Part shown: positions 3,008-55,649 of the stretch, piece by piece
Position numbering within the stretch: position 1 is the stretch's first letter
Layout of the letters: each line of letters starts with the position of its first letter
NCBI GenBank assembly: GCA_036785375.1
Contig: JAWMAR010000200.1
Coordinates: 3,782,001 to 3,846,000 of the forward strand
DNA from: Leucoraja ocellata
Taxonomy: Eukaryota
Direction of reading: 5' to 3'
Length of the DNA: 64,000 bases
The notes under the pieces: model-generated
The model's input: the letters and a program-made list of their open reading frames with translations, nothing else
What the model was told of the DNA's origin: nothing
The model's database searches: none
Position numbers and translations under genes: made by a program

Positions 3008-3051
3008 GTGTTAGAGCTGTAAAACTTTAAACTGGACTATGTTTATTTTTC

Positions 3052-3278: not shown

Positions 3279-3329
3279 ACTATGTTTATTTTTCTCTTTG
3301 CACTACCCGTTATTATTACAGATGATCTG

Positions 3330-10605: not shown

Positions 10606-10613
10606 ATCTTAAC

Positions 10614-13435: not shown

Positions 13436-13448
13436 GAGTTATTCCCTG

Positions 13449-13573
13449 GTGTGTAGGAAGGAACTGCAGATGCTGGTTTACACCAAAGATAGACACAAAA
13501 TGCTGGAGTAACTCAGCGGAACAGGCAGTATCTCTGGATAGAAGGAATGGGTGACTATTTGGGTTGAGACCCT
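13449..13573 (-). mobile_element. Penelope pLTR unit with tail, truncated within the hammerhead
   Basis: GGAAGGAACTGCAGATGCTGG..GACACAAAATGCTGGAGTAACTCAGCGG..GAATGGGTGAC. Confidence 0.75.
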
Positions 13574-15831
13574 AGTGTGTTCATGCTTTATCGCGGGACA
13601 CCATGCAAAATCTCCTATGAAGCATTATGGGCAAAATTTTAGAGTTGAACAACTAGTGAGTTCGGTACATTCATGGACACATATTGGCACTTCTCGAGTA
13701 GTCAAGTAGTTGGCAGTACTAGATAGTTCTGGTCTAAATGTGAATATTAAACATAGATTTCAAAGGTGCCAGTCTTGTATGTTAAGAATATTTCATGGAC
13801 CCTTTTTGGCTCTCCAAATTCTCATTGACTATTAGGTGGCCAATATTATGAATGGTGGTGGTGGTGGGGGGGGGGTGGGGGGTGGGATAGATAGATAGAT
13901 GTGTTCTGGGAATTGGTCAACGCTTTGGAAGTATGTTTATAAAATGCATTCATTGTCTGGTATTTCAAGCTAATTCTGCAGCATTTCGGTTTTAAATGAT
14001 TTATCAAAATGAAAGGAAATTCAGGCTGCTCCACCTCTTGACAAATACTTCAGAGGAAGTAAAAGCTAGCTCTTTATAAATGTGCTCTGACAGCAGTGAG
14101 CTTCACCTGCTGGTGCCTGCAGTTTTTTTGTTGAGAAAAATGTATGAGTGCAGGTTCATACAACACCTTTGTATTTCCCTGGCAGGCACAGCCTCCAGGC
14201 TAGTGTCCTTGCCAATAGAATAATTCAGAATTATTGCAGAGCTTAAATTATTGTGGATTCATTATTTGCTTGGACAGGAGTGTTTATTTTCTTTCTGTTA
14301 TTCTGATACATAGCTCTTGATCGAGACTTATTCAAAAGTGAACTTGTGGACGATATGTTGCTATCCCAGCCAACAGTATGTCATGTGAGAACTCTGAAGC
14401 ATTCAAGGTTAACAGGTAATGGGGTTATGGCTTGAATTTTGTGGCCAACAGTAAACCATAGTGACCTTGAATGAAACATTTCTAATTAAAGTCTAGCAAT
14501 CTGTATTGAGGCGGAGTACTGCTTCATTGATTTTGGTTGCGAGCAGATACCAATTTGAGCGAATCTCTGGTAAACCAGCATCAATAATATCACCAAGCAA
14601 ACTAAGTAGCCAAACACAAATAAGAATTTACACAACTTGGAAACTTGCAAAAGCACATTTGTTTAGAAGACCTGATATAAAGTGAACACTCCGGCAAGTT
14701 TATAGAAGTTGGAACCATTTTAAAGTTTAAAAATACCAGCATCATCTTAAAATTCATTGAAATTTTAAATATTTATCTGGCGGAATGCTCATCCACAATT
14801 TATTTTGTGGGTAGTGGAGGTTGTTCAGCAAAAAAATATATTGGTCGGCCATGAAAAGTTTTTGGACTAGTTATGTGTGGCATTTTCCATTGAGAATAGT
14901 TTGTAAATATTTAAAATGTTAGGTTATGGATTTGTGTGCGTGGTGCATGAGAGTTCCAAAACAACATCCTTTCGAGGATTGGCGCAGCCTCTTTCTCCAC
15001 TCACTGGCTTCTTATTTTGCTGGTGTTGACTCTCTGTCCCATTTAGTATCAAACATAAGGAAGAGAAGCATAAGTAGTTGATCCAGCCCTTTGACCCGGC
15101 TCCATTGTTCAGAACATTAATGTCTTGTCTAAACTTGGCTTCAACTCCACTTGCCTGACTCTTTCCCATAAACCTTGAATCCCCTGTAGACCAACAAATC
15201 TGTCTATTTCAGCTTTCATTGCACCATTCCAGAGATCCAGATCCCTCTGAGGGAAGAAATGTTTCCTCATGTCGGGGAGGAGCAGGTTCGAGGAGCTAAG
15301 TGGCTTCCTCCTGCTCTTCTTTGTCACTTATTCTGTAGTGAATCAGTGAGACTGTATCCTAAAACTATGCCCATTATTCTAGATTCCCTCAAATAAAGAA
15401 AAATAAGAAAATAAACTTACTCTCAGCATTTAAATTGAGAAACTCTTTCAGAATGTTATGTATCCAATCTCAGAACTGATTTTCATCTCATATTTCTTTC
15501 ATTTCAATCCGAGGCCATTCTTAACTTCCTAACTTTGAAATATATTGATATTCTTAGTTGTCGAGTTTTTCCTCATTTGAATATATTTTTGTTCAGAATT
15601 ATGACATTAGCACAATATTGCAGATGGATGTTGTCTGGGATGGAATGTTTTACGAGAAAAGACTCTGTAGATGGGTTTGTTTTCCTTAAAAGAGTGGAAG
15701 CTGTATGGAGACCTGAAAGGGGTATACTGAGTTATGGAAGACATTGATAGGATAGATAGAGAAACATTTCCCCAGGCAGAAATGCCATGTCTAATCTGTA
15801 TGAAGATTAAAGGAACCTGTAATTATTACAG

Positions 15832-15922
15832 GTAGACAAAAATGCTGGAGAAACTCAGCGGGCGAGGCAGCATCTATGGAGAAAAGGAATAGATGAACAT
15901 TTTGGATCGAGACCCTTCTTCA
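15832..15922 (-). mobile_element. Solo tail-less pLTR/hammerhead unit with TSD
   Basis: ~91-bp unit flanked by AATTATTACAG (15821-15831) and AATTATTCCAG (15923-15933). Confidence 0.7.
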
Positions 15923-17591: not shown

Positions 17592-18633
17592 TAAATTCCC
17601 TATTCTTGGGAATCTCTGGACCAAGACCATTTGGAGTCGAGACAAAGCATTTAGGATGGCACTGAGAATCTCAAACCCATGTTTCAAGAACCCACAGAAG
17701 CCAAGTATAAACGGCTGAGGGAGCACACCACTTCACCATCCACCTGTCCCATTAGGTATCTCCTGCTGTCCTATGGAAGAGGCTGTTATTCCATACTGGT
17801 CTCATCTCTCTAAGTACCCACGGACAAGATTAGAAGCATCGATCCCGAGGGACAGTCTTTGAAGTAGTCTGTTGCAGAAAAACGGAACAAATTATACATA
17901 ATAATTTCATTCTTTGCTTTAATGCAAATAAATGTAAAAATTGTAAAAATCTAAAAGAATGCGGGGGAAATTGAGAGATTTTGAGAGTGATTATATTTAA
18001 GAGAAACTTATGTTGAGTCAACAAAATTTGGTGTCAGTAAATGTAAAAATAGCCTAAAATGCACGAGTATTTCCCATGCAATTAATTTCATTAAGTAGAG
18101 CAGAGTCATAAAATCAGGAGGGAGAGAATTGGTACAGAGAATTTTATGATAATTGCCTTTCAATAATACTAACTCACATTATTATAATACAGTGGGCTGT
18201 TCAATTAGTGAAGTGCTTAGTTCATTAATTTGCCAAAGGAGGAATTAAAAATGAAACTTATGCATTATTTTTCACTTATCTGTGAATTCAACTCTCAATC
18301 ATTTAGTGCATTCTGGGAATCCTCAAGATGTTAACTATCTTTACAACACAAACGGGCAGAAAATTAATAGTTTTCAAACATGTTATGTATTACACTGTCC
18401 ATCTTTGAGGCTGCATTTCAGACCAAAGGATATTTGAGACTATTGACATTCCTCTCTAATATATGGTGGAATTGTATGGGCCTTGAATTCCACTATCTGA
18501 AAGATTGGTGGAAGCAGAAGCACATCACATCCGCGGCACTTGATTGAGCACTTAAATACCACGCTATATCTGAGACCTGGGAAATAATCAATGTGAACAC
18601 GATGGACTGAATGGCCTTGATTTATACTGTACC

Positions 18634-19423
18634 TTTGATTCCACCCTCTCCCTTGAGCCTCACATCCGCCATGTCATTAAAACCTCCTTCTTTCATCTCC
18701 GCAACATCACCAAACTCAGACCCTCTCTCACACCGCCCGCTGCTGAAAGACTCATCCATGCCTTCATCTCCTCCCGACTGGACTATTGCGGCTCACTTCT
18801 CCTTGGCATCAGCTCCTCCTACATCAACCGACTCCAACTGGTCCAGAACGCAGCTGCCCGACTCATCACCCATACCAAGTCCTGGCATCACATCACTCCA
18901 GTCCTCGGGCAGCTTCACTGGCTTCCTATCTCCCACCGGATCACCTACAAAATCCTGATCCTCACCTACAAAGCCCTCCACCATCTGGCCCCCCCATATC
19001 TCACTGACCTCCTCTCCCCCTACCAACCCTCACGGTCCCTCAGATCCACACCACCTCTCCATCCACGTCCAACCTCCGCAGTTTTGGGGACAGAGCCTTC
19101 TCCAGGGCAGCTCCCAGGCTCTGGAACTCCCTCCCCCAACTGATCCGCAATTCCGTGTCCCTCACCATCTTCCAGTCCCGCCTCAAGACCCATCTCTTCA
19201 CCTCTGCCTATCCTTAGCCCCACGTGCCGTCCCTTTTCATCTGTGCATTAATTGCCTCATACTGTGTTTTGTACTGAATTCTGTATTTACTTTGTGTACT
19301 AGTCATGTCTCTACTATTTATTTCATTCCCCTTACATGTTTTTCCTCTACCTGCTAAACTTTTGTAAGGTGTCCTTGAGACTCTTGAAAGGTGCCCATAA
19401 ATAAAATGTATTATTATTACTAT
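18634..19423 (+). mobile_element. L2-clade LINE 3' fragment, relatively young
   Basis: Translates FDSTLSLEPHI..FFHLRNI..LIHAFISSRLDYC..LQLVQNAAARL..HITPVL.QLHWLP..LWNSLP; tail AATAAAATG(TAT)n; TACCTTT at 18630-18636 and 19424-19430; interrupts an older CR1 tail. Confidence 0.9.
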
Positions 19424-21924: not shown

Positions 21925-22036
21925 ATCCTGACCCAAAATGTTGCTTGTTCATTCCTGACACAGATGCTGCTTGAACCACTGAGTTCTACCAGCATTTGTG
22001 TTTTGCTCAAGATTCCAGCATCTACAGTTCCTTGTG
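21925..22036 (+). mobile_element. Old Penelope pLTR unit
   Basis: CAGATGCTGCTTG..CTGAGTTCTACCAGCATTTG..CCAGCATCTACAGTTCCTT. Confidence 0.6.
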
Positions 22037-23867: not shown

Positions 23868-26800
23868 TTTTTCCTCATCTCAGTCCTAAATGGCCTACTC
23901 CTTATTCTTAAGCTGTGATAGGGGGCGCTGTCCTGTGCATGGCTGCCCTGCCAGCAGTTGTCTGTCTTTTCACCGTTTTATTTTTATTTTTAGTTAGTTA
24001 AAGTGTTTTGTTTGGAGGTCTAGACTTTTTTATGTCGGGGGGGGGGGGGAGGGGGAAACTACCTTTCAGGGTCCCTACCTGGTCGGAGAGGCAGCTTTTC
24101 TCCGGGCTGCAGCTTCGACCCGTACTCGCTGGCTACCAGCGGGCCTGGAGCGGCGTCCAGTACGGAGGCGGCCGTTCCAGGGTTCCCATGCCGCTGTGAG
24201 GACTCTTCCGACGCCGGAGCACCACCACCCGGCGAGAACGGCCAGGAACATCGGGCCTCCGTAGAGGCAACTGTGGAGGCCTCAATAGGCCCGACTATGG
24301 GTGAACTGCGGTTGGGGACCGGACTTTGTGCCTTCCCTCATTGTGGGAGCCGTTGTGGGAGGATGTTCTTTGTGTTTAAGACTCTCATTGGTGTTATGTC
24401 TGTATTCTTTTTTTTGTGTGCTGCGAAATGGCAAAAAGCATTTCACTTCACTACACCTCGGTGTATGTGAATGTGACTAATAAAATACCTTTGACCTTTG
24501 ATACCTTTGATCCCTGGTTCTGGACTCCATAACATCGGGACATTTTTTTCCCGCATCTAGGAAAAAATGGCAGACAGGAAGCAAAGAGTAGGAATTAACC
24601 ACTATTAATGTCAAACCCTTTAAGAATTTTATATGTTTCTCTAAGATATCCTCTCATCCTTCTAAATTCCAGTGAATACAAGCCCAGTCGACCCATTATT
24701 TCATCATATGTCAGTCCCGCCATCATGGGAATTAACCTGGTGAACCTACGCTACACTCCCTCAATAGCAATAATGTCCTTCCTCAAATTAGGATACCAAA
24801 ATTGCACACAATCCTCCAGGTGCAGTCTCACCATGGCCCTGTACAAAAGCAGAAGGACCTCCTTGATCCTAAACTCAAATCCTCTCGCAATGAAGGCCAA
24901 CATGCCATTAGCTTTCTTCACTGCCTGGTATACCTGCATGCTTACTTTCAGTGACTGATGCACAAGCACACCCAGGTCCCATTGCACTTCCCCTTTTCCT
25001 AATATGACACAATTCAGATAATAATCTGCCTTCCTGTTCTTGCCACCAAAGTGGATAATCTTACATCTATCCACATTATACTGCACCTGCCATGCATCTG
25101 CCCACTCACCAACCCATACAATTCATCCTGCAGCCTCATAGCATCCTTAACCGCAGCTCACACTGCCACCCAGCTTTGTGTCATCCGCAAAATTGGAGAT
25201 GTCACATTTAATTCCATCGTCTAAATCGTTAATATATATTGTAAAGAATATATACTGGGAACCCAGCACCGAGCCTTGCGGCACCCCACTAGTCACTGCC
25301 TGCCATTCTGAAAATGACCCATTAATTCCTACTCTTTGCTTCCTGTCTGCCAACCAGTTCTCTATCCTTGTCAATACCCTAATCCCAATACCATGTGCTC
25401 TAATTTTGCACACTAATCTCTTGTGTGGGACCTTGTCAAAGGGTTTTTGAAAGTCCAGATACACCACATCCACTGACTCTCCCTTATCCATTCTACTTGT
25501 TACATTCTCAAAATATTCCAGAAGATTAGTCCAGTACGATTAGTCAAGCATGATTTCCCCATCATAAATCCATGCTGACTTTGACCGATCCTGTCACTGC
25601 ATTCCAAATGCGCTGCTATAACATCACCCCACCTGTAAGGCTGTCTTTTATTCCCTGTTTTCTCTCCCCCTCCTATCTGAAAAAGTGGAGTTACATTGGC
25701 TACTCTCCAGTCCACAGGAACTGATCCAGAGTCGAGATAACATTGGAAAATGATCACCAATGCATCCACGATTTCTAGGGCCACCTCTTTGAGTACTCTG
25801 GATGCAGACCATCAGGCCCTGGGGATTTATCTACCTACAGTTCCAACAGTTTACCTAACACCATTTCCTGACTAATATGGATTCCCTTCAGTTCCTCCCT
25901 CCTACTAGATCCTCGGTCCCCTAGTATTTCTGGGAGTTTGTTTTTGTCTTTCTTAGTGAAGACAGAACCAAAGCACTCGTTTAACTTTTGCCATTTCCTG
26001 GTTTCCCATTATCAATTAATCTATCTCTATGACTGTAAGGGACCTACATTTGTCTTCACTAATCTTTTCCTTTTTACATCTAAACAAGCTTTTACAGTTA
26101 TTATATTCCCCGCAAACCTTCTTTCATGCTCTTTTTCCCCCCTCTTAATTAACCCCTTTGTCCTCTGTTGAGTTCTAAATTTCTACGAGTCCTCTGGTTT
26201 GCTACTTTCTCTGACCAATTCATATGCTTCTTCCTTGGATTTAACACTATCCTTAATTTTCCTCGTTAGCCACGGTTCAGCCTCCTTCCTGTTTTATTCT
26301 TTCGCCAGACAGGGATGAACAATTTTTGGAGTTCATCCATGCAGTCCTTAAATCTTTGCCATTGCATCTCCACCGTCAACCCTTTAAGTGTAATTTGCCA
26401 GTCTATTCTAGCCAATTTCCATCTCATACTTTCAAAGTCTCCTTTATTTATGTTCAGGACCTTATTCTTTGAATTAACCGTGTCACTCTCCATCCTAATG
26501 CAGAATTCCACCATATTATGGTCACTGTTGCCCAAGGGACTTTGCACAACAAGATTGTTAACTAATCCTTCCTCATCACACAATATGCAGTCTAGGATGG
26601 CCTGCCCTCTTGTCAGTTCTACATATTGGTTTAAAAAACCATCCCGTATACATTCCAGGAAATCCTACTCTTCGGCGCTGCTACAAATTTAGTTGGCCCG
26701 ATCTATATGTCACCCATGATAACCGCTGTACCTTTGGTACACGCATCCCTAATTTCCTGCTAGATGCTACCCCCAACCTCCCTACTGCTGCTTGGTGGTC

Positions 26801-27090
26801 TGTATACAACTCCCACAAGCGTTTTCTGCCCTTGGCTATTTTGCAGTTCTACCCATACTGATTCTACAGCATCCAAGCTAATGCCACTCCTTACTATTGC
26901 ATTAATCTCTTCTTTAACCAGCAATGCCACCCCACCTCCTCTTCCTTTCTGTCTATCCTTCCTGAATATTGAATACTCCTGCATGTTTAGCTCCCAGCCT
27001 TGGTCACCCTGGAGCCATGTCTCCATAATTTCAACTATATCATATTCCTTAATTAATAACTGCACATTCAATTTATCTACCTTATTATGA
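23868..27090 (-). pseudogene. Large CR1/HER1-type LINE ORF2 remnant (APE endonuclease plus RT) with frameshifts and internal deletions
   Basis: ORFs 26760-27140 (YDIV.I.ETWL..RKDR...RGGGVAL), 26266-26583 (LGNSDHNMV), 25500-25784 (DWRVANVTPLF), 25147-25491 (YLDFQK.FDKVPH..GVPQGSVLG..FADDTKL) and 24751-25086; interrupted by 23921-24510. Confidence 0.92.
23921..24510 (+). mobile_element. Non-coding ~590-bp retroposon (SINE-like or non-autonomous LINE derivative) nested in CR1
   Basis: Starts GGGGGCGCTG..CATGGCTGCC, CpG-rich body, ends GTGACTAATAAAATACCTTTGACCTTTGATACCTTTGA (tandem tail); splits contiguous CR1 sequence at CTGTGA|..|CCCTGGTTCTGGACTCC. Confidence 0.7.
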
Positions 27091-29800
27091 TTTAATAGCT
27101 TAACCGCACAAATATTGCGATTACACATAATAAAAATCAACTCATGGTACTAAAATGATATGATTCAAAGATAATTAATGAATGTATGAATGCCATTTAC
27201 CACTTAACCTTACCAACGTCCCAATTTTCTAGTCTTGATATTAGAGGACAACAAACCCATGCAATGTTCTGAGATTTCAAAACCATCTTCAAACTAGATT
27301 TCTTACTATATTGTATTTTTACTGTATTAATGTTATATATTGGCATGTTTAATTTTCAGAACATACTTTCATTTTAATTTGCTTGCAGTAATAGTTTTGC
27401 TTGGCTGCTCCAGCGAATTAATTAAAGAATAGGACTTGTATTTATTAATCTACAAACACTGGAGCACAAGAAATAAAAGAATAAGTAGGGCAGTAAGATG
27501 TCCGGTGGTCCTTTATCGTATAAGCATTTTCTTGTACAAACCGACTAACCATAGACTTCTGCCTTAAATATATTCAGTGACTGAACCTTTATAGCCTCAT
27601 TGGGTAGAGAATTCCAAAGATTTATATCTGTCTGGCTTCAGAAGTCTTTCCTCAGCATATCCCTGAATTGTCAACCTTTTTTTATTAAGACTGTGACCCC
27701 CTCGTTCTCAGTCCAAAGTCATGGGAAAGGACAATCCAGCATCTATGCATCAACTTTGTAAGAACGTTGTAGAGAATGGGGGGGGGGGGGGGGGGGGGGT
27801 GGATGATTGTGTGGGGAAGAAAGAGCAAATGCATCAAGGGTTCAGCTCTTCTGAGGTCCAGAATCTGGCTTAGAGACCCAAATGGTGTATTGAATTGAAA
27901 GTAGGGAGTTTGGCAAAAACCACAGCAAAAGGACTGAAAGTCTTTCATTTTCCCCTCATCTTCCCCTTACTTCTTGCCTCCTCCTTTCTCTCCCACTATT
28001 TCCCCCTTTTTCCCCATCTCCATTCAGCTTTTTTGTCCCTCTTGCGCCTCTCTTCCCCACCTTCATCTCTCCCTATTTCCCTGCTTTCTTTTTTCTGCCC
28101 GTTTTTACTTGCCAGCAGTCTCGCCATGACCGTTTAAATACAAATTTATAATAATTAAAACTACAAAACATACATTGTTTTTTTTTTAATCACCTTTCCT
28201 TTACATCCAAATCCCCATTAAAAGTAATGGGGTCTTCAGTCATACGCCAGGCATAATCTGATGCAGGGTTTTCTGTTCCAACTAGGTTCTACAACTGCAC
28301 TTGTTTTGCACATAGCAGTTGAATGAGAATTTGATATTGCCTTATTGCCTATGGAATACTTGTCTGTTATCATCAAAGAGTTGAGAGCTGTAAATTGTTT
28401 CATAAATGGCTGCTCTTCTCTCAATTAAACATTTTCTTTTTGTGTGGTGATAGATACTTCATTTTTGATTTTCTTCAATGGCAAAATTAGTTTGTCTTTT
28501 TTTTTTACCTAGGTTTTGTTCACAAACTATAATTATGCATATTGATACAAGATAAACTCAAGTGGAAATTCATTGCTCGCGTTACTACAATCACTTGCAT
28601 GTTTCTCAAGTTATTTTAATTATACTGAATTCTATTTTCTCTGTTTGATCGAATTGATTATTTATCTGCTATTTCAAGCTAAATGAACATTTTAATTTTT
28701 ACAATGTTCAAAAAATATAAACTTTTGTCTTCACACAAGATGCAGTGAACCCCAAGGCTTTTGTTGGATTCATACGTTGAGAAGCATTTTGTTGCTACTT
28801 GTGATTTATAAGTACTTTGTAGAAATTTACAAACTAATTTAGATTTCTTTAGACTGTGTTAGTTTCCTCTCCCTACTCATTCTGAGAAGTTATGGTTCGC
28901 CACCTTATGGAATATCAATAATACTGTTGTTACGGTAATTGTGCTCTGTTGATCTTATCAGAGAGGACCAACATTTGACCAGCATTATGTGCATGCTTAC
29001 CCAAATGTTTCACAATGCCACTGTGTTCTTGTTTGTGGGACATTTTGACAGAGGTTACCAAATTGAGAAAGGTTGTCAATGTAAGCTTTGTGAATTGCTG
29101 CAGTGTTTGTCACAGACGGTAAATAATGTATCTACAGTGTACCAGTGATGGAGGGGAAATGTTGGTTCAATGGAATGAATCTCAATAATGTTCTATTCTG
29201 GATGGTACTGCACTTCTTGAATGCCTTTATTCAAATGAGTGTTGAATTTCTGAGTCTCAACTTGTGCCTTGCATATGTTGTAAAAATATTTTTAAAAGAG
29301 TAAGAATATTATCCTATAAAATTGCTCGTGAGCGAGTTATTGTCATCACAGTGTTAAAGATTTCTATCCAATTTGGGCTGGACCTCGTTGGCACGGACCT
29401 GCTTTCTGCAATTGCAGCCTGCAGGAATCCAAACCTGACAGAACTGTATGCAGACGATGTGCCTTGTTGTCCTTCGGGGTCCTGAACTTCAACGGCATGA
29501 CCTGAGTAGCAGCAAAGTTTCAAATAGTTAGAGACACTTAAAATCTAATTAAACCGAATTAAAGCTACTTGCACTTGTTTTTACACCACAATCAAATATA
29601 AGACCTTACCTTCCCTTTTTTCTACATAACTCATAATCCTCACTGAAATCCATTGAGCAGCCAATGTAGCCCCTGTTCTCTCCTCACACAGGAGCCAATG
29701 GTTCATTTTCGCTTCACACACGATCCAATGGTTCATTTCTCAAATGTAAATGCTGTGGAATCTCAGCAAGATTAAGCTCTGCAGTGCACTGTTTCAACTT

Positions 29801-33232: not shown

Positions 33233-33687
33233 CAGGAAAGAACTGCAGATGCTGATTTAACTCGAAGGTAGACACAAAATGCTGGAGTAACTCAGCAGGA
33301 CAGGCAGCATCTCTGGAGAGAAGGAATATAAACAGAGAAAATAGGTGCAAGAGGAGGCTATTTAGCCCTTCGAGCCAGCACCGCCATTCATTGTGATCAT
33401 GGCTGATCATCCACAATCAGTAACCCGTGCCTTCTCCCCATATCCCCGATTCCGCTAGCCCCAAGAGCTCTATCTAACTCCCTTTTAAATTCATCCAATT
33501 GTATTTAATAATAAGATTAAAAGGAAAAAAACGGACCGACGCCGCTCTGCCTTCTGTGGCAGAGAATAACACAAATTCACAACTCTCTGGGTTCAGACTG
33601 CAGAAGGATCTCGGCCCGAAACGTCCCCCTTTCCTCTCCAGAGATGCTGCCTGTCCCGCTGAGTTACTTCAGCATTTTGTGTCTACC
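33233..33687. mobile_element. Penelope pLTR inverted pair with a CR1 fragment (about 33330-33591) in its centre
   Basis: Left arm (minus, with tail) 33233-33326 and right arm (plus) 33598-33687; ATCTGTTTTAAG duplicated at 33221-33232 and 33688-33699. Confidence 0.75.
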
Positions 33688-34307
33688 ATCTGTTTTAAGT
33701 AGTTCAGTAATATACACATTGCTTAAATGAATGCTGCAACATCATTTAATTAACTGTATGGACAGACACTCAAATAGAACAGTGTTTACCTTGGTCTAAG
33801 TAGACTCTGCTCCCTGGGGATATTTGCTCCATCAATCTGACTAACATTTTGCCAATACTAAGTACTGTTGAAATCTTCAGCAGTAAAATTAAAATGCACA
33901 TGAAGGGAATAAGAGTCTGACCAGAATCTATGACCCATGAGGTGTTGCTGCATTTGTGCATTTGAATCCTGTCGATGTACAACACACACACACACAGTAT
34001 CATCTCTAAAGAGTTTCCTCGATTGAAAGATGTCACATTGGACACACGATTGGCATCAGTACAACTAGGGTTTTGGATATTGATCTTTCATGTGGCTATT
34101 TCACCTTGTTTCATTGCTTGTTTGTGATCACAGATCATCACGGTATACTTGGTATTCAGTAAGTGCTTATTATATTGAACCTTTGTAATGCAAGGAAGTA
34201 ATGTATTTACCTTTTCACAATAAGGAACATGCGGTAGAAGTGATAGGAACATAGGGCGGGATAAATATTTGAGAAAAATAAATAAAACTGAGGAAAGAGC
34301 AGGAAAA

Positions 34308-34343
34308 GGGTCTGAAGAAGGGTCTCGACCCGAAACGTCGCCT
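34308..34343 (+). ncRNA. Type I minimal hammerhead ribozyme (best-preserved copy)
   Basis: Stem I GGGT (34308-11) with GCCT (34340-43); CTGAAGA 34312-18; extra A; stem II GGGT-CTCG-ACCC 34320-31; GAAA 34332-35; palindromic ACGT in place of stem III; GUC triplet with predicted cleavage after 34339. Confidence 0.7.
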
Positions 34344-34406
34344 ATTTCCTTCGCTCCATAGATGCTGCCTCACCTGCTGAGTTTCTCCAACACTTTTGTC
34401 TACCAT
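34308..34406 (+). mobile_element. Solo tail-less pLTR/hammerhead unit with TSD
   Basis: ~97-bp unit flanked by AGAGCAGGAAAA (34296-34307) and AGAGCAGAAAAA (34407-34418). Confidence 0.8.
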
Positions 34407-34521
34407 AGAGCAGAAAAATATCATTTAAAGTAACAGATCGACACAATCTAATTAAATGGCACAGCAGGCTCAGTGGACTAAATGACTTGGTAATATCATG
34501 AGACAAGGAAGTTGAAAGTAA

Positions 34522-35515
34522 TGGGCCTGTCCCACTTAGGTGATTTTTCAGACAACTGCCGGCGACTGTCATGACGTAGCAGGTCGCTGAAAAACGGCGA
34601 CTGGAACGGCGACTGTCAGAGTGGGACACACACAAACATCGCTTCATTCACCAGCCCGTTGTGCAGGCGGGGAACAGGCCAAGGGGGGGCGCGCTATCTG
34701 AGTGAAATTCACATGGTGCAAAGCCAATGTGATATGGACAAACACCACAATGAACAGGAAGGTTGGCGCTGTCATTACGAATGTGAAAGCACAGTGTACA
34801 GGAAGGGTCACTTAAATCCTTTAAAAGATGGAGGGAGAGGGGGGAAAGGGGGAGACGGGGTTACAATAAACAATAGGTGCAGGAGTAGTCCATTTGGCCC
34901 TTCGAGCCAGCACTGCCATTCAATGTGATCATGGCTGATCATCCACAATCAGTACCCCGTTCCTGCCTTCTCCCCATATCCCCTGACTCCGCTATCTTTA
35001 AGAGCCCTATCTAGCTCTCTCTTGAAAGTATCCAGAGAACCGGCCTCCACTACCCTCTGAGGCAGAGAATTCCACAAAGGAGTGAAGACAACATTCAAGA
35101 AGCCAGAGGTACCACGGCTGTGAAGCTCAGCGGACATTAACATTGCCGGTTGGTTATCCTTGGTTCTGAAAACTACTGTTTACGTTTTTTTCCCCAATAA
35201 GCCAATTAACTTCACCGATCAGCACCGGCGACAACCTAGACCTCCTGGTGACCCACTGCCACTGCACCTACGGCACGAGTATTCTCGCTAATCACCATGG
35301 CGTAAAAATTCTGGTCGCCGCTAATTTTTCAATCAGAAAATTTTTCAACCATTCTTTCGACCAGAATGAAGCCGCGACTAGTTCTGAGAATGCGGGGACT
35401 ATTCATGACCATGAAGGCAACTCCCCGGCAACCACCCGCGAACATGTGGCGACCATGCGGCGACCGCATAATCTCCTGGAGTCGCCTAAAAAGTCGCCTA
35501 AGTGGGACAGGCCCA
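34522..35515. mobile_element. PIF/Harbinger-like MITE with nested CR1 fragment
   Basis: TIR TGGGCCTGTCCCACTTAGG / CCTAAGTGGGACAGGCCCA, TAA TSD (34519-21, 35516-18); CR1 3' end inserted at about 34862-35076. Confidence 0.88.
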
Positions 35516-35559
35516 TAACAGTGACCTTGACTCCAACTGTGAGAACAGTCCAAGCATGA

Positions 35560-39014: not shown

Positions 39015-39415
39015 GGCAAAGTTAATTAAATCAACTGGTGTAGGAGGCAGCCCCGAAGCAGTCATTGATGTAGTGGAGAAAGAGTTGGGGTATAGTGCCA
39101 GAGTACGATTAGAACAAGGACTGTTTGCCGTAACCAACAAAAAGACAGGCATAGCTGGCCCTATGCGGGTGCCCGTTGCTACACCTTTAACTTGAAGAGG
39201 GTGAGAGGAGTCAAAGGAAATGTTATTCAGGGTATGGAAAAGTTCCGGCTGGTGGAGGAGAGTGTTGGTAGCGGAAAATTGATTGGGTGTCTGGTCAGGG
39301 AAAAACTGGAGGGCCTTGAGAACCTCCTGGTGGGAGATGCAGGTATAAAGGAACTAGATGTCCATGGTAAATATGAGGCAATTGGGGCAAAGGAAATTGA
39401 AATCTACTGGATCTT
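39015..39415 (-). pseudogene. Penelope-like reverse transcriptase fragment
   Basis: Minus strand reads LIFTMDI*FLYTCISHQE..LNNISFDSSHPLQVKGVATGTRIGP..LFLHYINDCFG, degenerate PLE RT motifs (DVxSLYTxI, QxxGxAMG, RYxDD). Confidence 0.8.
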
Positions 39416-40102
39416 CCGGTTGCTAACGATTTTATCTCCCCTTTCTATTCCCATTATGATCTTCCTTTCCTGGGCCTCCACCATTGCCAGAGTCAGGCCA
39501 CACAAAAACTGAAGGAACAGCACCTCATATTCTACTTGGGTAGTTTACAACCTAATGATATGAATATTGAATTCTCCAATTTTAGGCAATGCAAACTACA
39601 AACAATCCTACCCCATTTCCCCCTCCCTTTTTTCATCCCTCTCTTCCCTGCGGCCCACCTAGATCCCCCCCCCGGTATCCTTCCACCTGTATTTCTTCCT
39701 CGAGCTTCACACTTTGCACTTATTCTATCCTTATCTCACACTTTTTGTCTGACTACATCTGGCCACTGTCCAACCATCCTCCAATCAAATACCCCTCACC
39801 TGTATCCATCTATCACTTGTCTGAAGAAGGGTTTTGGCCCGAAACGTTGCCTATTTCCTTTACTCCATAGATGCTGCTGCACCCGCTGAGTTTCTCCAGC
39901 TTTTTTGTGTACCTTCCATCTATCACTTGCTTTGTCCTGCCCTCAAAAGTCTCCCACTTTCCCCCTCCTCCACCACAATCAGTCTGAAGAAGGGACCTGA
40001 TCCAAAACGTCACCTATTCATGTTCTCCAGAGATGCTGCCTCACCCGCTGAGTTACGCCAACACTTGTGTTTTTTTGCAAGCCAGCATCTGCAGTTCCTT
40101 CT
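39416..40102 (+). mobile_element. Penelope 3' end: GIY-YIG C-terminus, UTR, pLTR and tail
   Basis: LHHCQSQATQKLKEQHLIFYLGSLQPNDMNIEFSNFR; pLTR from 39984 with hammerhead G12 lost (CCAAAACGTC); tail CCAGCATCTGCAGTTCCTT. Confidence 0.82.
39820..39914 (+). mobile_element. Solo 95-bp hammerhead/pLTR unit nested in Penelope UTR, perfect 15-bp TSD
   Basis: TCCATCTATCACTTG at 39805-39819 and 39915-39929; core CTGAAGA-A-GGGT-TTTG-GCCC-GAAA-CGTT at 39821-39848. Confidence 0.88.
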
Positions 40103-41019
40103 CCAAAGGAATAGGTCATCTGGTTTTCCAAATTGTAGTTAGTTTTTCTCTACCTAAGCCATTTTCCTATTTTACTTAGCCTATATTATTTGTTTTAAAT
40201 TGAATACTTTCAAACATGTTCAGAGAATTCACTGGACATTTTTTTACATTTTACTCATCTCAGTGGGAGGAATTTTTCAAACACTGGTTCATTTCTTTCA
40301 ATAATGATCATAAACTTACTCCATCTGTTATGACTTCACCAAAAAGCAGAAACAATCTATCAATGCTTTATTGATCATAGCAATGCTTCTTTTTTGAAAC
40401 TGTTTCTGCATTATACATTTTTCACACATCAACTGCAAAAGAAAAATACACAAGTATGATCACCATTACTTTCAGCAACACAGCGTTTGAGACTTTATCC
40501 CATTGGATTTTCATGTCCAGCTGCAGTAGAATTGAAACTGGAACCACGCCCACCTCTATGCTGTGCCCAGAATCACATGTGGTGTTTCATATCACTATTC
40601 GAAGTTGGAGACCATGGGTTCTATAGTTGAAAGTTGGCTAAAAATGACTAAATAAGAAAAACAATAATTTTTTATCTCACGCCTTGAAATTAATTCTGAG
40701 TTTATGCATTAGGCTGAACTTTACCCTCCAAAAGCACACGTTTGGGGCAGGGATGGTAGCGGTGGGTACAGTTGAAACTGGGAAGTTGGCATTTATCCTG
40801 CATTTAACTCATGCACTATGTTTCGAGCAGGCAACCTTGTTGGGAGAAATGGGTTGCCAATTTCCATATGTTAATTGGTTACTTAGTGTGATATTAATAC
40901 AGGCTTTAACATCAGATCCATGCTTTTCCTGATTGTTATAAAGCCATCAGTGAAGGTCATGCATGTGTGTCAGAGTAGATTGCAAGGAAGTATATCATAA
41001 ATACTCAGTACTCATACCT

Positions 41020-42885: not shown

Positions 42886-43952
42886 CAGGTGCACAACTTT
42901 TTATCCGAAAGCCTTGGGACCAGACACTTCTCGGATTTCGTAATTTTCGGATTTCGGAATGGAAGATTTTTAGCGTAGATTAGGTAGGTAGCGCGGGCGG
43001 CTTGAAAAGTCTGGAGCGGCTGCCTCCTCCCAGGGAGATCGGGGAATCATTGTAAATCATTGCTTAAATGTTAGTCAGTTAGTTTGGAGGGATTTTATGT
43101 GAAGGGGGAACTTTAATTCTTAGTCCCCTACCTGGTCGGAGAGGCAGGGAGCGGGCAATGCCTTACCGGGTCACCGTGCAGTAAGCTCCGGAGCGCTGTG
43201 GCCGCCGACTCCCAACATCGCGGAGCTGGGGCTGCGGGCGTCCGGCCGCGGGTGGCGCCGGTTGGAGCTCTGACCCCGGCAACTCTACCCCTGGCTGCGA
43301 GGCGCTCCAAATCCCAGCGCCACCGCAGCCGGACGCCCGCAGCCCCAGCTCCGCGATGTTGGGAGTCGGCGGCCACAGCGCTGGGATACCAGCGGGGAGT
43401 GGGCAATGCCTTACCGGGTCGCCGTGCGGTAAGCTCTGGAGCGCAGTGGCCGCCGACTCCCAACATCGCGGAGCTGGGGCTGTGGGCGTCCCCGGGTGGG
43501 CGGCACTGGATTTGGAGCCGCCGCGCAGCCAGGGAACAGTTGCCGGGGTCGGAGCTACAACCGGCGCAGCCCGCGGCCGGACGCCCGCAGCCACAGCTCC
43601 GCGATGTGGGAGCCGGCGGCCACAGCGCTCCGGAGCTTACTGCACAGCGACCCCGTAAGGCATTGCCCGCTCCCGCCTCTCCGACCAGGTAGGGGACTAA
43701 AAGTTTCCCCCTTCACCCCCCCCTTCACATAAAAGCCCTCCAAACTAACTGACTAACATTTAAACAATGATTTACAGATGTTTAAGTGTCTCCCGGTACT
43801 ACTGTAGTACAGACCTGGGTTGACCGTGGGTCGTTTCGGGTCACGTTTGGCGCCAAACGTGAGCTTTGGTGTGCAGACGACATCCTGGAAAAAATGTCCG
43901 GATTTCGGAGCTTTTCGGTTTCCGGAACTCCGGGTAAAAGGTTGTGCACCTG
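42886..43952. mobile_element. Tc1/mariner-superfamily (Tigger/pogo-like) MITE with a large internal fold-back
   Basis: TA|CAGGTGCACAACTTTTTATCCG ... CGGGTAAAAGGTTGTGCACCTG|TA (20/22 match); subterminal TTCGGA repeats; internal inverted repeat 43051-43776; CpG-rich. Confidence 0.9.
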
Positions 43953-44324
43953 TATTTGAATTCAAAGAAATGTAGTTGAGGGTTATTATGGTTTCAAGAT
44001 AAATGTACTCAGAACAAAAATCTTTGTGAATCCACATTCTGTGTAATTCTTTCTTGTCTTAGATACTGAAGGAAATTGGAAGAAAAACAATCTACATATG
44101 AAGGAGTGTTATCAAAATAAGGCTTTATTTACAAAGTAACAAAAATATTGTATTTGAAATCTTTTTCCATTTTGAAAGAATTTCATAATTCTTTTGATTT
44201 TGGTCATAAAATAGCTTCACTTTTTCTTCAGTTGCTGGTCTCCATGGAATTCTTCCAGATGTAAAGTAAATTACTTTGTACATCTGGTCAAAAAAGAATG
44301 TATCTACAATTCTGCAAACTCTAA

Positions 44325-45071
44325 TGGGCCTGTCCCACTTTGGCGACTTTCTAGGCGACTGCAGGAGACTATGCGGTCGCCACATGTTCGCGGGTGGTTG
44401 CCGGGGAGTTGCCTTCATGGTCACGAGGAGCTCCCGCCTTCTGGGAACTAGTCGCGGCCTCATTGTGGTTGCCACTAATTTTTCAACATTCATGTTGAAA
44501 AATTAGCGGCGGCCAGAATGAAACCGCCATGGAGAGTAGCGAGAATTCTCGTGCCGTAGGTGCAGTGGTAGTGGGTTGCCAGGAGGTCAAAGGTGTCGTA
44601 GGTTGCAGCCGGTGCTGACCAGTGAATTTCAAAAAACCGTAAGCAATAGTTTTCATGACCAAGGATAACCGACGGTAATGTTAATGTTTGCCGAGCTTCA
44701 CGACCGTGTATCTCTGGCTTCTTAAAAGTTGTCTCCACTCCTTCTCCCCCCCCCCCCCCCTTTTTCCCCTATTCTTCCCCCTCCCCCCCTCCCCCCCCCC
44801 CCCCCCCCCCATTTTAAAGGACTTAAGTGACCCTTCCGGTACACCATGCTTTCACCGTCTTAATTACAGTGCCAACCTTCCTGTTCTGTATCACATTGGC
44901 TTTGCACTTGTGAATTTCACTCAGACAGCGCTTCCCCCGCTTGCCCTGTCCCCCGCCTGCATAACGGGCTGGTGAAGGAAGCGATGTGTGTGTGTGTGTT
45001 CGTGTTCGTGTTCGTCCACTCTGACAGTCACCGGCAGTTGCCTGAAAAACCGCCTAAGTGGGACAGGCCCA
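44325..45071. mobile_element. PIF/Harbinger-like MITE, second copy in opposite orientation to 34522-35515
   Basis: TIR TGGGCCTGTCCCACTT / AAGTGGGACAGGCCCA, TAA TSD (44322-24, 45072-74); body is the reverse complement of the first copy; central poly-C tract. Confidence 0.88.
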
Positions 45072-45679: not shown

Positions 45680-46280
45680 CAACTGGATCCTTGACTTCCC
45701 CATCGGCAGACCTCAATCTTTGCGGATCGGTAACAACATCTCTTCCTCGCTAAACATCAACATAAGTGCACCTCGAGTCTGTGTGCTTGGCCCCCTGCAA
45801 ACTCCATCCTAATGACACCATGGCTGTTGGCTGAATCACAGGTGGTGATGAGTCAGCGTACAAAGTGCTGGAGTAACCCAGTGGGTCAGACCTAGAGTAT
45901 TCCTGGAGAACATGGATTGCTGATGTTTCAGGTCAGGATCCTTCTTCGGTCTGAAGAAGGATTATGACCCAAAACATCACCTATCTACATTCGCCAGGGA
46001 TCCTGTCTGTCAAACAGAAAGTGCTGGAGTGACTCAGCGGATCAGGCAGCAATTCTGGAGAAAAAGGATGGGTAACATTTTGGGGCGTGACCCTTCTTCA
46101 CACTTCCCACCATTGAAAGAATCTGAAAAGAAGGAGGTAGTTTTCTTTAAGTGCCTTGTCACGGTCTCTTGTCACTGCTACCATGGGGCAGGAAGTACAG
46201 AAATCGATGCCCAACACCACCATGTTCAGGTACAACTGCTTTCTTACATTTATTAGATACTTGAATTGGCCTGCACAGCC
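45680..46280 (+). mobile_element. Rex1/Babar RT and 3' fragments interrupted by a cluster of pLTR units (45861-46102)
   Basis: NWILDFPIGRPQSLRIGNNISSSLNINISAP (Rex-type RT); inverted pLTR pair centred on TTCTTCGGTCTGAAGAAGG plus a third unit; GGCAGGAAGTACAGAA..CACCACCATGTTCAGG near 46190-46230. Confidence 0.7.
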
Positions 46281-47345: not shown

Positions 47346-47422
47346 GGTAGACACAAAATGCTGGAGTAACTCAGCGGGTGAGGCAGCATCTCTGGAGAGA
47401 ATGAATTGCCGATGTTTCCGGT
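47346..47422 (-). mobile_element. Truncated tail-less pLTR unit
   Basis: GGTAGACACAAAATGCTGGAGTAACTCAGCGGGTGAGGCAGCATCTCTGGAG. Confidence 0.7.
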
Positions 47423-49624
47423 CCATCTGCAGTTATACCAAATCCATTTGGCATACAAGAATTACTGGAACACTTTAAACTGATAAAAAATACTGATCAA
47501 GTGATGTAATTTCATTTTAAAAAAACTGAAAATGCAACAAAAGTCATTTGTTTCAAAAGTATTTTTTGTCTTTCTGATTTCTTAACATCTTTGTGAATTA
47601 GCTCAATAACAGAATTCCTTGTTGGTCATCTTGTTTTACAAACTGTTAGAAACAAAGTATTGATGTGTCCTTTTATTTACATTCAAAAGTATAAAACTTA
47701 CAGAATGGAATCTTACACTAGGTCTTTGGGATATTATAGTATTTAAGGAGTTTTGTTATTTAGAATTAGCGATTTAGATCACGTTATGACTGCAGTAAAT
47801 ATTTTAATGCAGTCGGTGAATATTTCAGTTTCTCAGATTAAAAATGATTGTGATAACATTTAAATTATTTTAGTAGCCTGTTTATCTTGAGATTTATAGT
47901 TAAACCAGGATGCAGGCAGACAGCTATTCTTTGCTGATTTTTTGTTTATGTGTATGATTGTCATTTCAGCCTTTTCATCAGCATCAGGTGTCAACTTCAG
48001 AATTTAATTTCCTGTTTATTGTTATCTTGAATTATTACCTGGAACAACAGCTGAAAAAAAATCAGAATTTCCTGTGAAATATTAACATTTGATGTACTAT
48101 ATTAAGAGAATAACTGCACAAGTTTTGTATAACATTTGGGGTTTAGAGAACAAAACAGTAATCGGTATCGTATATCTATCCTATGTTGTACCGCACAACA
48201 TACATCCTGTAGAATTTGTCCAGTCTGCATGGAGAGCATGAGCACAAATAGTAACTCAATGAGCTTAAATTAAAATGCACCAGCAGATTTACAAAGGAGG
48301 AGTGTGTTTTCTTAGCAGTGTTCAATGTTAACAGGCATGCTCTCTGTTAGAAGGTAAAACCACTTGCACCTTGGTGTTTTTTTGTGTTCCTTGTGTGCTT
48401 TATTACAAGAGATGTCAAAGCAATTGAATACAGAATTCATTTTTCCCCTCAATAGGGAAGTTAATGTTATGGAAATCATTTATTTTCAGTTTGTTGAAAC
48501 GGAAAATAGTTCCCCAGCTAATGGTTAATTCAATTAAAAACATTTAGAGAAATGCAAACATGTCTTGGCAAGACAATTACAATTTATGGAATTTGGAGCA
48601 GCAATTGCCACTTCTAATTTGGATGACACCTCCAAGACCGTTAGCGCTCCAATAGGTAGTGACTAGTCTGAAACTTTGATTTTAATTAGAATTGGGAAGA
48701 TTCTGGGCCAGAGATACAGTACATCAAATGGACTATGGGGAAGCTAAAGTACCTCACAATAACTGTAAAAAACAGCACATACAGAAGTTTACCTGGTATT
48801 GGATCTAAGGGGCTGTGAATCTAATTCAATTTGAAGCACAATGAATGGTATGTTCTCACATTTGTGGTGGTAGGATTTGCACTTATGACCTATGTAATTA
48901 AACTGATACTAAACCCACAAAGCTGCCGTTTATGAGGCAGGCCTTTGGACAGTCAGCTAAACCTGTAATTGTATATATGGCTCTTAATTCCGGTGGAATT
49001 TCATTTATTGAAATAAGACAGAAAATATTGGAAATACTTGGTAAATCAGCAGCATCTGTTGAGGAAAAGATAGTTAATTTTTTGGGTCGATGATCTTCCG
49101 TCAGAACTTTCATTGGTGGTTGATATGTTCCGAGCCACATCACGTTCTGCCTTCATGTTCCACATCACCAATTTCTTGGTTTTTAAATCAAAAAGGCTTT
49201 CTGCTGTGCTTCAGAACGGTGCTTCATGTAGAAGGGATCAGTTAAACCAGCAGTTGAGTTACAGCAAATATATGCCCTATTAATATGTGTTGGCATCACA
49301 TTTTTACACATTATAGCATGGATATTAGTTTTCATTTCTCATGAAAAAATAATTGAAACTGAAATGTGATTGTGAAATACTGATTGTGATCCGTAAGCCT
49401 GTATAATAAATCAGTATGTTTTGCTCAAAAGCTGTTTGGAGTTGATGAGTATTTCATTGTTATGGTATGTGAAGAATAGGAAGTCAGTGTGGTGCATCAG
49501 GAAAGTAAAGTTTGAAGGTGCCGTAAAAGATGAATTGAAGCAACAATTTTGTTAGCCAAGGCTGTTAAAGTGTGCAGAAACAACATAGTTGGAATTGAGA
49601 TACAAGTGAACTATGATATGATTA

Positions 49625-53072: not shown

Positions 53073-54120
53073 CTAATAGTAGTTGAGTAGTATGTTAATT
53101 TTCTCCTACAAATGTTGTTGAGACAGCATCTATGTCCTTTTTGCATGAGAATTAGAACACAAAGTGTCAGGAATAGTATTCAAGAGTATTGGTCTAGACA
53201 TTGTGGCTGAGGAGCAAAAGCCCAGAACAGACTTAGTGGGTCTATTGATTCCAAAGATGCACAGGGAATTTTCTTGTGAAATTAACCACTAATATTGACG
53301 GAAGGTCTGTAAAAATTGCATGCAAGCACAATCAGAATTTCCACCAAAGCTGTGCCAATTGGTTGGCAGTATCTATTTAAATAAACATGAAACTTTACAA
53401 AAAATAATGAAATTATTTTTCCCAATTATAAGGTGTTTGAAAGCTAGTTGCCACAATTTGGTTCATTAGATACCCTGGGACTAAATATTGAAATCTGCAA
53501 TGAGGGCTATATCGTCATTTTTATCTTTATCAGGTATATAAAAATTGATTATTTTATGGAAAATTGATTTTATCAGTGATTTCTGAATGTCATAATCTCA
53601 TCGGATTGCTAAATTTGGATCAAAAACGGAGCACTAGCTCTCCCTTTTAGAAATGCCACCTGTGCTATTTGTTTTGGCCGGGAGCACTAATTAATCACAT
53701 AATAATTAAACAATAGGAAGCACATTAAATGACACGGAAATGCTGTTAACACAGTTATCAAGCCATAACTGAAGCTGCGAAGCACTACAAGAGCTCAGCA
53801 TCTGTTGGGTGAATCTATGCACAATTTTTTTTAAATCATAGATCGCCTCTTTCTGTAATTTCTTTGCTCTTTACAAGAATGGTGAACTTATAGACGTCTG
53901 CCTATTTTTTTGTTTCATTACTTTCCTACTTCAGACATTTCCTGACATTTTATTCTGGTTTGTATTTAAACTGCATGTTCATAAAGCAGAAGGAATGGAA
54001 CAGATGCTGCACTTTAAGTATTTTGTATCTCCAATGGGTTGCTCTCTGACAATTGCGATTTTCTCAATCTGTTGTTTTGATGTTTGTTTTTGTTGCTTAA
54101 AAGTATTCTGACATGATCTT

Positions 54121-54510
54121 TCTGTCTCGCTCTCGCTCTCTGTCTCTGTGTCTGTCTCTGTGTCTGTCTCTGTGTCTGTCTCTGTGTCTGTCTCTGTGTC
54201 TGTCTCTGTGTCTGTCTCTGTGTCTGTCTCTGTGTCTGTCTCTGTGTCTGTCTCTGTGTCTGTCTCTGTGTCTGTCTCTGTGTCTGTCTCTGTGTCTCCC
54301 TCTCCGTGTCTCCCTCTCCGTGTCTCCCTCTCCGTGTCTCCCTCTCCGTGTCTCCCTGTCTTTGGTTTCTCTCTCTCTTTCTCTATCTTTTTTTCTCTGT
54401 CTGTCTCCTTCTCTTCTCATTGTTTCTCTCTCTCTGCCTCCCTCTCTCTCTCTCTCTCTTTGCTTCCCCTCTGCATCTCTTTCTCTCTGCCTCCACTCTG
54501 CCTCTCTGTT
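54121..54510. repeat. Compound tandem repeat: ~13 x 12-mer TGTCTCTGTGTC, ~4 x 14-mer TCTCCCTCTCCGTG, then CT-rich tract
   Basis: Read directly: 54141-54297 (12-mer) and about 54295-54356 (14-mer). Confidence 0.95.
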
Positions 54511-55649
54511 TCGGTACTGGTCACTCCAAGATGGAGCTTACTTGCTTTATCAACAGTAATGCTACTGTCCAACGGAAAGTTTCAACAAAAGCCAAACATT
54601 TTAGATTGATATTTTCATTCTTGTTTTATCTTTAAATTTTAGGTCTATTTTAGATATGATAATTTTTAAGGTTGTATGTATTTATTTCTCTTTTTATTAA
54701 TTGCACTGACAAAAACAGATGAGAAACAATTTTTTGTTTCTTCTGTGTATGAAAGTACTCGGTGAAATGACAATAAAGTTAATACTGAATGTTCAGATGG
54801 CCATTGATTTCTTCAGCCTTGCATGCATCAGTAAACTATCTTGTGCACATGGCCATCTGGTCAGTCTTCTCAAATCAAGAGTTGATTTCTGATGTGCCTG
54901 CCAATCAGTAATACCCTCTCTCTCTTGATCCGAGCTAATTATTTGGGCCCATCTGTCGATGGACTCCCAATGTCTCTGAGCAGTGACCACGTCCGTTCCT
55001 GGGCCTTACTCCCTATTTAGCTAAACGTTTTAAATGTTGTTTAGACTGGTCAAGAACAAACTTTTAAAGTGATCAAAACAAATTTGAATGGAAACTGTTG
55101 TTCATAATAGATAACACAGGAAAATCAGAGTGGACAGTAAACGGGTATTGTTCTGCAAAGGCATCATACACTCAAAAATGATCACGGCACACAATTTGAA
55201 TCAGTGATTATCTTGTTGGATTGAATCTATTTGAATTAATTCCTCCTTTTTAGAATCTTAAGTAAAGGGTAAATATTTTATAGTCTTACAATGAAATTGT
55301 ACAGACTTGCAAGTGGCATGGTAAATCTTTAAATGTAATGTTTCCGACATCACCCAAAGCAATTGCCTTCAGTTAAGGAATATTATGTTACACGGTCCTA
55401 GCCCAATGTCATATTACTTTAGGAAAAACAAAATACTCTTGCTTGAAATAAGAAGCCCCTCCCCCCCTCACAAAAAAATGAACACAATGTTACATAATAT
55501 GGAAGCACAGTTAATATTTCAGATCAGTATGCTTTTTGTCAGAACTGGTAAATGCCAAAAACAATATGAACTGAGATATGTGAAGTGGATAGTGAAGTGT
55601 GAGTGAGAATGGTGAGGTTTCAATATTCACACAGACATCTGTAGATATA

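Follow-up and report, generated by a model that had tools for sequence, protein, structure and literature searches.

Solo copies of a short, hammerhead-bearing unit are scattered over the 64-kb window, by which we mean the whole stretch of skate DNA analysed here. Judged from its sequence, this unit forms the end of a skate/ray-type Penelope-like element (PLE), namely its terminal pseudo-LTR (pLTR) segment. The solo copies are probably short run-off cDNAs of that pLTR, inserted by the reverse transcriptase (RT) and the GIY-YIG nuclease of the PLE with the hammerhead carried uncut. An initial annotation had suggested that they may be a tiny non-coding ribozyme retroposon that is comparable to retrozymes and moves by PLE RT/GIY-YIG in trans. 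Movement by these proteins with target-site duplications (TSDs) is supported by our analysis. The same sequence also ends the coding PLE copies at 3334-3711 and 39413-40105. A likeness to retrozymes is not supported: the predicted cut site lies ~30 nt inside the unit, which ends at putative PLE reverse-transcription start sites.

Solo units, target-site duplications and two 3' ends

Three insertions had been reported with TSDs of 11-15 bp, and we find them as described, with the direct repeats in register. The reported length of ~91-97 bp needs a small correction for one of them, the measured lengths being 91, 95 and, for the 34308 unit, 99 bp. In a chance control of 4976 random 95-bp intervals, equally good in-register repeats are found 12, 4 and 16 times for the 34308, 39820 and 15832 units, respectively. 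All three finish at the proposed common 3' boundary, ..GTCTAC(C). It is not the sole end, since six copies extend ~36 nt further; end A reads ..CTACC and end B ..CTACAC. The spacing of the two ends is 36-37 nt in the two cleanly measured copies and represents the PLE 'tail'. The three insertions are composed as follows.

34296-34307 (+): left TSD, host DNA, AGAGCAGGAAAA; source of the GGAAA in the long 'stem I' discussed below
34308-34406 (+): solo pLTR-end unit, 99 bp, tail-less (end A), with two surplus G at the 5' junction
34407-34418 (+): right TSD, AGAGCAGAAAAA, matching the left TSD at 11/12 positions
39820-39914 (+): solo unit, 95 bp, end A, intact core (GUU); perfect 15-bp TSD 39805-39819/39915-39929
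15832-15922 (-): solo unit, 91 bp, end A, inactivated core; 11-bp TSD 15821-15831/15923-15933 with one mismatch

The extra GG at 34308, a single case, is reminiscent of nucleotides added where a capped template ends. The 39820 unit sits within the pLTR region of the older PLE remnant 39413-40105. At 3323-3333, 13444-13454, 15821-15831 and 39915-39929, the first 2-6 bases of the 3' TSD are identical to the element's own end sequence, which suggests priming via short complementarity between target and template.

A BLAST search of the window, using four copies from it as queries, gives 16 related copies, in line with the approximately 15 estimated before; a degraded match near 5400-5460 is left out of all counts. 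With each head-to-head pair counted once and the ends read by hand, they amount to 14 insertion events. Seven of the 14 show no TSD. Upstream PLE sequence is absent from 12 of the 14. The remaining short copies are listed here.

10612-10746 (-): solo unit with tail (end B), starting at the hammerhead 5' edge; TSD searched, none found
13452-13573 (-): unit with tail, starting 7 nt into the core; an 11-bp direct repeat overlaps both ends
21927-22033 (+): old unit with tail, starting inside stem II; TSD searched, none found
33236-33328 (-): unit with tail and without hammerhead, starting ~31 nt after C3
33593-33690 (+): solo unit, end A, beginning TTCAGACTG, a junction-like palindrome centre; no TSD found
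47346-47423 (-): unit, end A, starting inside stem II; no in-register TSD

A common 3' end with 11-16-bp TSDs is shared by the solos, a 378-bp truncated PLE and a head-to-head pair. An 8-bp helix between unit and tail is retained in all six tail-bearing copies, with one mismatch and no covariation, and the tail-less solos do not have its 3' strand. Within 33249-33293, the tail is in part a repeat of the sequence preceding end A (15 nt, 80%, spacing 30), so that both 3' ends follow a similar CAGCAT..CTAC motif. One frame is open through unit and tail in the divergent copies 10612-10746, 13452-13571, 33236-33328 and 39982-40105, and its translation in several copies reads LKKG..RDAA.PAELLQHF..QHLQF. 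This frame may be the N-terminus of the PLE ORF, as in other PLEs; a protein search with it gave no match.

Several other repeats are found in the window. A ~1-kb element at 34520-35520, 100 bp from the 34308 unit, has terminal inverted repeats beginning GGGCCTGTCCCACTTAGG, and a related end lies near 44125-44502 (shared translation); we take it to resemble a non-autonomous DNA transposon. The stretch 43051-43776 is foldback-like, with 58-bp terminal inverted repeats (97%) around several GC-rich inverted modules of 50-80 bp. Broken LINE-type fragments are located at 24751-27149 (-) and 18574-19143 (+), with an RVT_1 match at 25147-25536 (E 1.6e-10); we assume the labels CR1-like and L2-like for them. 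A short repeat beginning GGCACAGCGGTAGAGTTGCTGCC, presumably akin to elasmobranch tRNA-derived SINEs, occurs at 2900-3030 (-) and ~13380-13440 (-), and both copies adjoin PLE units. A long simple repeat with a 6-bp period and low-complexity open frames on both strands occupies ~54100-54600.

Coding ends of Penelope-like elements

The proposed link to Penelope is borne out by the two coding PLE copies that end in the unit. In these two of the 16 copies, a pyrimidine-rich spacer lies upstream of the unit and is preceded by coding sequence for the C-terminal half of a batoid PLE GIY-YIG nuclease. Only this C-terminal part is present; the RT and the GIY-YIG motif itself lie outside the two copies.

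39413-40105 (+): older PLE 3' remnant with the GIY-YIG C-terminal coding end (39413-39592), pyrimidine-rich spacer, palindrome (TCAGTCTGA, 39979-39987), unit and tail (end B)
3334-3711 (-): 378-bp 5'-truncated PLE with the GIY-YIG C-terminal end (~3700-3551), spacer, unit and end A; perfect 11-bp TSD 3323-3333/3712-3722, of which the 5 inner bases are identical to the end of the element; 3' end shared with the solos

A HMMER search with the 60-residue peptide of 39413-39592 yields 49 relatives (best E 1e-14), and the peptide of the second copy is identical to one of them at 34 of 45 positions. Seven of the eight relatives looked up carry names, all of them from skates, rays or a shark. In a Pfam scan of nine relatives GIY-YIG appears in three, weakly and below the cut-off. 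A search with one relative leads to 334 proteins, many with RVT_1, and two of the five scanned among these have both RVT_1 and GIY-YIG above the Pfam cut-off. By sequence, the architecture of the homolog family is that of a C-terminal EN+ PLE, and a CX2-5CxxC linker, seen in homolog P0047, points to the Neptune/Nematis type. Pfam finds nothing in the window ORFs at 39096 and 39401. Pattern scans of viral, prokaryote and metagenome collections returned 0 loci; two further scans each produced 2 loci, from bacterial and viral records, and we take these as chance. In the batoid gene models P0003, P0019 and P0022, PLE nuclease ends are fused to host proteins, e.g. the neuromedin-U receptor. These fusions are probably annotation chimeras from an abundant repeat.

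The 5' boundary, its palindrome and the hammerhead

The initial annotation had considered that random ends would reduce the solos to ordinary truncated insertions. This does not apply, as the 5' ends are non-random and 8/14 events start within 5 nt of the hammerhead core. Relative to C3, these eight start at -5 to +2, four start deeper (+7, +15, +15, +31) and two are long. Such clustering has a probability of ~1e-9 under a constant-hazard model, with the -5 to +2 interval picked after seeing the data.

Onto the interval 3130-3790 we mapped, at 85% likeness, three DNA contig sets (organisms A, B and D) and 6% of one polyA RNA run of organism D. Between 95,000 and 141,000 contigs per DNA run match, which agrees with the very high abundance suggested before. 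In the RNA run 13,230 of 7.3 million reads match. Their depth reaches 5127 and 2965 on the hammerhead, drops to 182 one bin further upstream and is 604 where the ORF ends. The summed contig depth, which is not a copy number, steps at the same place. Loose ends at 3152, 3417 and 3421 occur in all four runs with 0.33-0.41 agreement, among the best 24 of 2658 listed; further loose read ends, at 3237/3240, are in line with the tail. The sets at 3152 and 3417 are AT-rich after the first few bases, as expected of mixed host flanks. The loose-end and clip positions fall on private mismatches of the reference, and the upstream parts of other subfamilies (75% identical) would escape mapping at 85%. The depth step therefore overstates the share of solos; the window count (12/14 events short) agrees with it in direction. 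RNA reads of the unit are ~1:1 by strand and 97% of them continue into unlike sequence, partly through clipping. Over the PLE coding end and spacer (3429-3704) the reads are strand-biased by 1.6-3:1, versus ~1:1 over the unit; by the usual library convention, the excess reads are antisense to the element. We also considered whether the 5' boundary is a splice acceptor, (Y)nCAG|T, and rejected this: no matching skip is seen among 15 of 547 joints listed and the solos have no common upstream exon.

The 5' edge of the unit falls on a near-palindrome, TCAG-N-CTGA, which overlaps the core start and is perfect at 39979-39987. The full palindrome is not reached by several solos, whose first base is at -2 or later. 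In the window, the 9-mer palindrome is not enriched (28 seen, 29.9 expected), and a perfect palindrome at 31624 proved unrelated to the unit family. Two head-to-head arrangements have their junction on it.

3052-3278 (both strands): head-to-head pair, one insertion event, with a perfect 16-bp TSD 3036-3051/3279-3294; left arm tail-less, right arm tail-bearing, junction on TCAG-N-CTGA (3145-3153)
45863-46104 (both strands): older three-piece cluster with a head-to-head junction (45946-45954) on the palindrome; TSD searched, none found

The pair at 3052-3278 is a miniature canonical PLE insertion. In both pairs exactly 5 nt lie between the arms, centred on the palindrome, and the two pairs come from distant branches of the tree. 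Two cDNAs ending at the palindrome would pair at 8 of 9 positions. Their end duplex is calculated at -7.5 kcal/mol if the run-off includes TCAG and at -2.5 kcal/mol if it stops at GT.

TCAGT also agrees, as we take it, with the initiator consensus. The motif alone is weak support, since such an initiator-like 7-mer is met every 73 bp in the window. The Penelope element of D. virilis has an internal TATA-less promoter (PMC2377424), and downstream PLEs are described to begin transcription in the upstream pLTR (PMC6765202). In D. virilis the start lies upstream of a 75-bp intron (PMC2377424), whose end abuts the hammerhead (PMC4209133). By analogy, this start away from the hammerhead would speak against run-off at the unit's 5' edge. 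A further point against it is that the polyA run of a related organism (6% read) shows no accumulation of RNA 5' ends.

The hammerhead itself matches the minimal hammerhead (min-HHR) described in PMC4209133, and this supports the earlier prediction of a minimal, dimer-type hammerhead in the unit.

34312-34339 (+): minimal type I hammerhead motif, predicted cut after 34339

The CUGAAGA (34312-34318), stem II (34320-34323/34328-34331), GAAA, the palindromic ACGU and the GUC ending at 34339 are all confirmed, and an extra A precedes the 4-bp stem II. The 34308 copy had been credited with every type I element; core, stem II, GAAA and GUC stand, while stem I was overstated. The 5' strand of its long stem I consists mostly of GGAAA (34302-34306) from the left TSD and GG (34308-34309) from the junction, so this stem is a feature of the locus only. 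The family-encoded stem I has ~2 bp, with the two pairs kept in 10/12 and 8/12 copies and a third in 5/11. Over 12 copies stem II is 89.6% paired, with one-sided changes only, and stem I is 65.7% paired; the stem I/II covariation is equalled by 193 of 500 shuffles. The folding energy is no better than that of shuffles, z being -0.87 over 34298-34352 and +0.24 over the entire locus. Rfam at E<=5 gives no hammerhead match but only hairpin-type chance matches below the gathering score, and an unconstrained two-strand fold does not produce the ACGU dimer helix. A complete core is retained in 4/16 copies (12/16 are broken), and an intact core together with the palindromic ACGU in 3/16. The core of the 15832 unit is dead, as C3 is missing and GAAA reads AAAA.

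Origin of the solo copies and comparison with known systems

For the run-off origin that we favour, the following course is conceivable. By analogy with the Anolis element described below, the PLE protein would bind the 5' pLTR of its own transcript and nick AT-rich DNA on both strands. Reverse transcription would then start inside the uncleaved RNA at end A or end B, one tail apart; such internal priming by a batoid PLE is again suggested by analogy. On the 5' pLTR, the enzyme would run off the RNA 5' end after ~95 nt (from A) or 130 nt (from B). The 5' boundary would be fixed if this RNA 5' end lies at the initiator-like TCAGT that immediately precedes the hammerhead core. A single cDNA joined to the second nick would give a solo with its TSD. 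Two opposite-strand cDNAs with TCAG-N-CTGA ends could anneal and prime each other, and a head-to-head pair would result. Priming on the 3' pLTR would lead to longer truncated copies. The tail-less solos, including the three insertions first noticed, would be mostly dead ends in neutral decay.

Other readings explain part of these data. Origin and 3' ends would be the same if the 5' boundary were set on a longer cDNA, where the palindrome or the folded hammerhead causes RT stalling, self-priming or a template switch, or where two long cDNAs anneal and get trimmed. In its favour, the palindrome lies at the centre of both head-to-head junctions, 2/14 events are long copies that read past the boundary site, and work on rotifer PLEs has described palindromes where inverted pLTRs meet and put forward a self-priming model (PMC3846280). 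We regard this reading as rather unlikely, as stem II has just 4 bp with the boundary on its far side, a palindrome of 9 nt centred on a single nucleotide is unable to fold back on itself, and solos flanked by perfect TSDs, which have no partner, end at the same position. Ordinary random 5' truncation, with a common start by chance or ascertainment, would fit the heavy 5' truncation described for PLEs, the four deeper starts and the two long copies. With 8/14 events within 8 nt and with a sharp depth step and loose ends at the same place in four runs, it is largely refuted and seems extremely improbable.

The units could also be a self-propagating, SINE-like non-autonomous PLE, i.e. a 95-130-bp copy with an internal promoter and an internal RT start, re-copied in trans with the same ends from any flank. 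The three insertions first noticed and the 3052-3278 pair form one clade (support 86/89), whose five members in the window are all short, which is suggestive but too small a sample. In four of the five, a single inserted nucleotide disrupts the reading frame that stays open in several other copies. The internal promoter of D. virilis Penelope (PMC2377424) would suit this reading; pLTRs are described to suffice in trans, and non-autonomous PLEs exist. Yet the short copies are spread over the whole tree and not confined to one lineage, the tail-less solos are without the 3' strand of the helix kept in all tail-bearing copies, and the unit RNA is strand-symmetric and mostly continues into other sequence. 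In addition, the minimal RNA of the Anolis PLE reaches beyond the first RT start (PMC11167929). Taken together, we hold such self-propagation to be unlikely. A retrozyme, in which dimer hammerhead cleavage frees a monomer that closes into a circle and is then copied into cDNA by PLE proteins, is a still more doubtful origin and in our view very improbable. Three copies keep an intact minimal core with ACGU, rare go-back joints are seen in DNA contigs, and animal retrozymes are reported to derive from pLTRs, with units from 51 bp to 972 bp, monomers and one chondrichthyan case (10.64898/2026.07.22.740005). Against it, only 1/14 events starts near the internal cut site and 0/14 end there, and hammerhead cleavage is dispensable for PLE insertion in vitro (PMC11167929). 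No place with many RNA starts or ends is reported in the one polyA run of a related organism (6% read), a type of library that cannot show circles. Since the cut site is internal, tandem arrays are absent among the 16 window copies, only 4/16 cores are intact, covariation does not exceed the control and the long stem I at 34308 comes in part from the host TSD, we conclude that the unit is most probably not a retrozyme.

The comparison with described systems leads in the same direction. The non-LTR retrozymes of animals (Cervera and de la Pena 2020, PMC7229834; Li, Clavereau, Pollet 2026, 10.64898/2026.07.22.740005) share with the skate units a non-coding nature, a type I hammerhead, the relation to pLTRs, the dependence on PLE proteins and dispersed monomers. 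Their monomer runs from cut to cut in tandem arrays (PMC7229834) and they form head-to-tail tandems with a circularising cut-to-cut RNA, whereas the skate units are dispersed or head-to-head and neither head-to-tail tandems nor a cut-to-cut monomer is found among the 16 window copies. The pLTRs of C-terminal EN+ PLEs (Arkhipova 2013, PMC3846280; Craig 2021, PMC8557442) are closer. They too have a terminal repeat joined to the GIY-YIG end, solo copies, an optional 30-40-bp tail on one arm, inverted head-to-head copies, a junction palindrome and TSDs of ~8-16 bp; an inverted truncated copy with the tail at one end is described in both papers. The window holds the pLTR with a GIY-YIG coding end, the optional tail (six copies), and an inverted truncated copy with a one-arm tail and one TSD. 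The skate unit is shorter, 95-130 bp versus ~190-220 bp for rotifer pLTRs. The skate solos have TSDs and are dominant (12/14), while several rotifer solos without TSDs are ascribed to recombination or deletion.

The min-HHRs of metazoan PLEs (Cervera and de la Pena 2014, PMC4209133) resemble the skate motif in the type I core, the extra base before stem II, the G10.1-C11.1 pair, the palindromic 15.2-16.2 and the occurrence as thousands of single copies and opposite-strand pairs. Single copies are ascribed there to truncated PLEs, and the sections of that paper used here contain no tabulation of their ends. Stems II and I have 4 and ~2 bp in the skate versus 7-8 and 4-5 bp in schistosomes, and a 2-bp helix I is described for D. 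virilis (PMC4209133). In vitro work on the Anolis Poseidon PLE, PAc (Frangieh 2024, PMC11167929), describes two internal RT start sites downstream of the hammerhead, whose spacing defines the 30-40-bp tail. The uncleaved RNA is the main template and both strands of AT-rich targets are cut and extended; for the skate, the same would apply by analogy. PAc belongs to another clade and species, its RT starts lie 111-118 nt or more into the ORF, and the parts of PMC11167929 considered here describe no fixed 5' boundary of short products.

Much of this is of a known kind. Single min-HHRs left behind by truncated PLEs have been published (PMC4209133), as have solo pLTRs and palindromes at junctions (PMC3846280) and the descent of animal retrozymes from pLTRs (10.64898/2026.07.22.740005). 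In the literature, most subscription journals and Repbase apart, we found no paper on the batoid unit or on run-off as a source of solo pLTRs. The sharp 5' boundary is a modest point beyond the known kind. Since copies often enter transcripts, as the RNA reads indicate, repeat annotation in skates and rays should treat the units as PLE ends.

For the origin of the head-to-head inverted ends of PLEs, PMC3846280 proposes self-priming and PMC11167929 leaves the second-strand steps open. A very abundant and very short product, whose two 3' ends and 5' edge are fixed and whose junctions lie on one palindrome, offers a large natural sample of integration events, and counting of junctions and ends alone can tell run-off-and-anneal from self-priming. 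A bolder and, in our estimate, improbable version is that the ~130-bp tail-bearing copies might be the smallest self-propagating Penelope parasites. The 5'-edge initiator would start their RNA, the tail helix would serve internal priming, run-off would restore both ends, and head-to-head pairs would be two run-off cDNAs annealed at the palindrome. If this is true, no poly(A), terminator or ribozyme cut would be needed, whatever flank follows, and the annealing of run-off cDNAs at a built-in palindrome would explain inverted pLTRs across PLEs.
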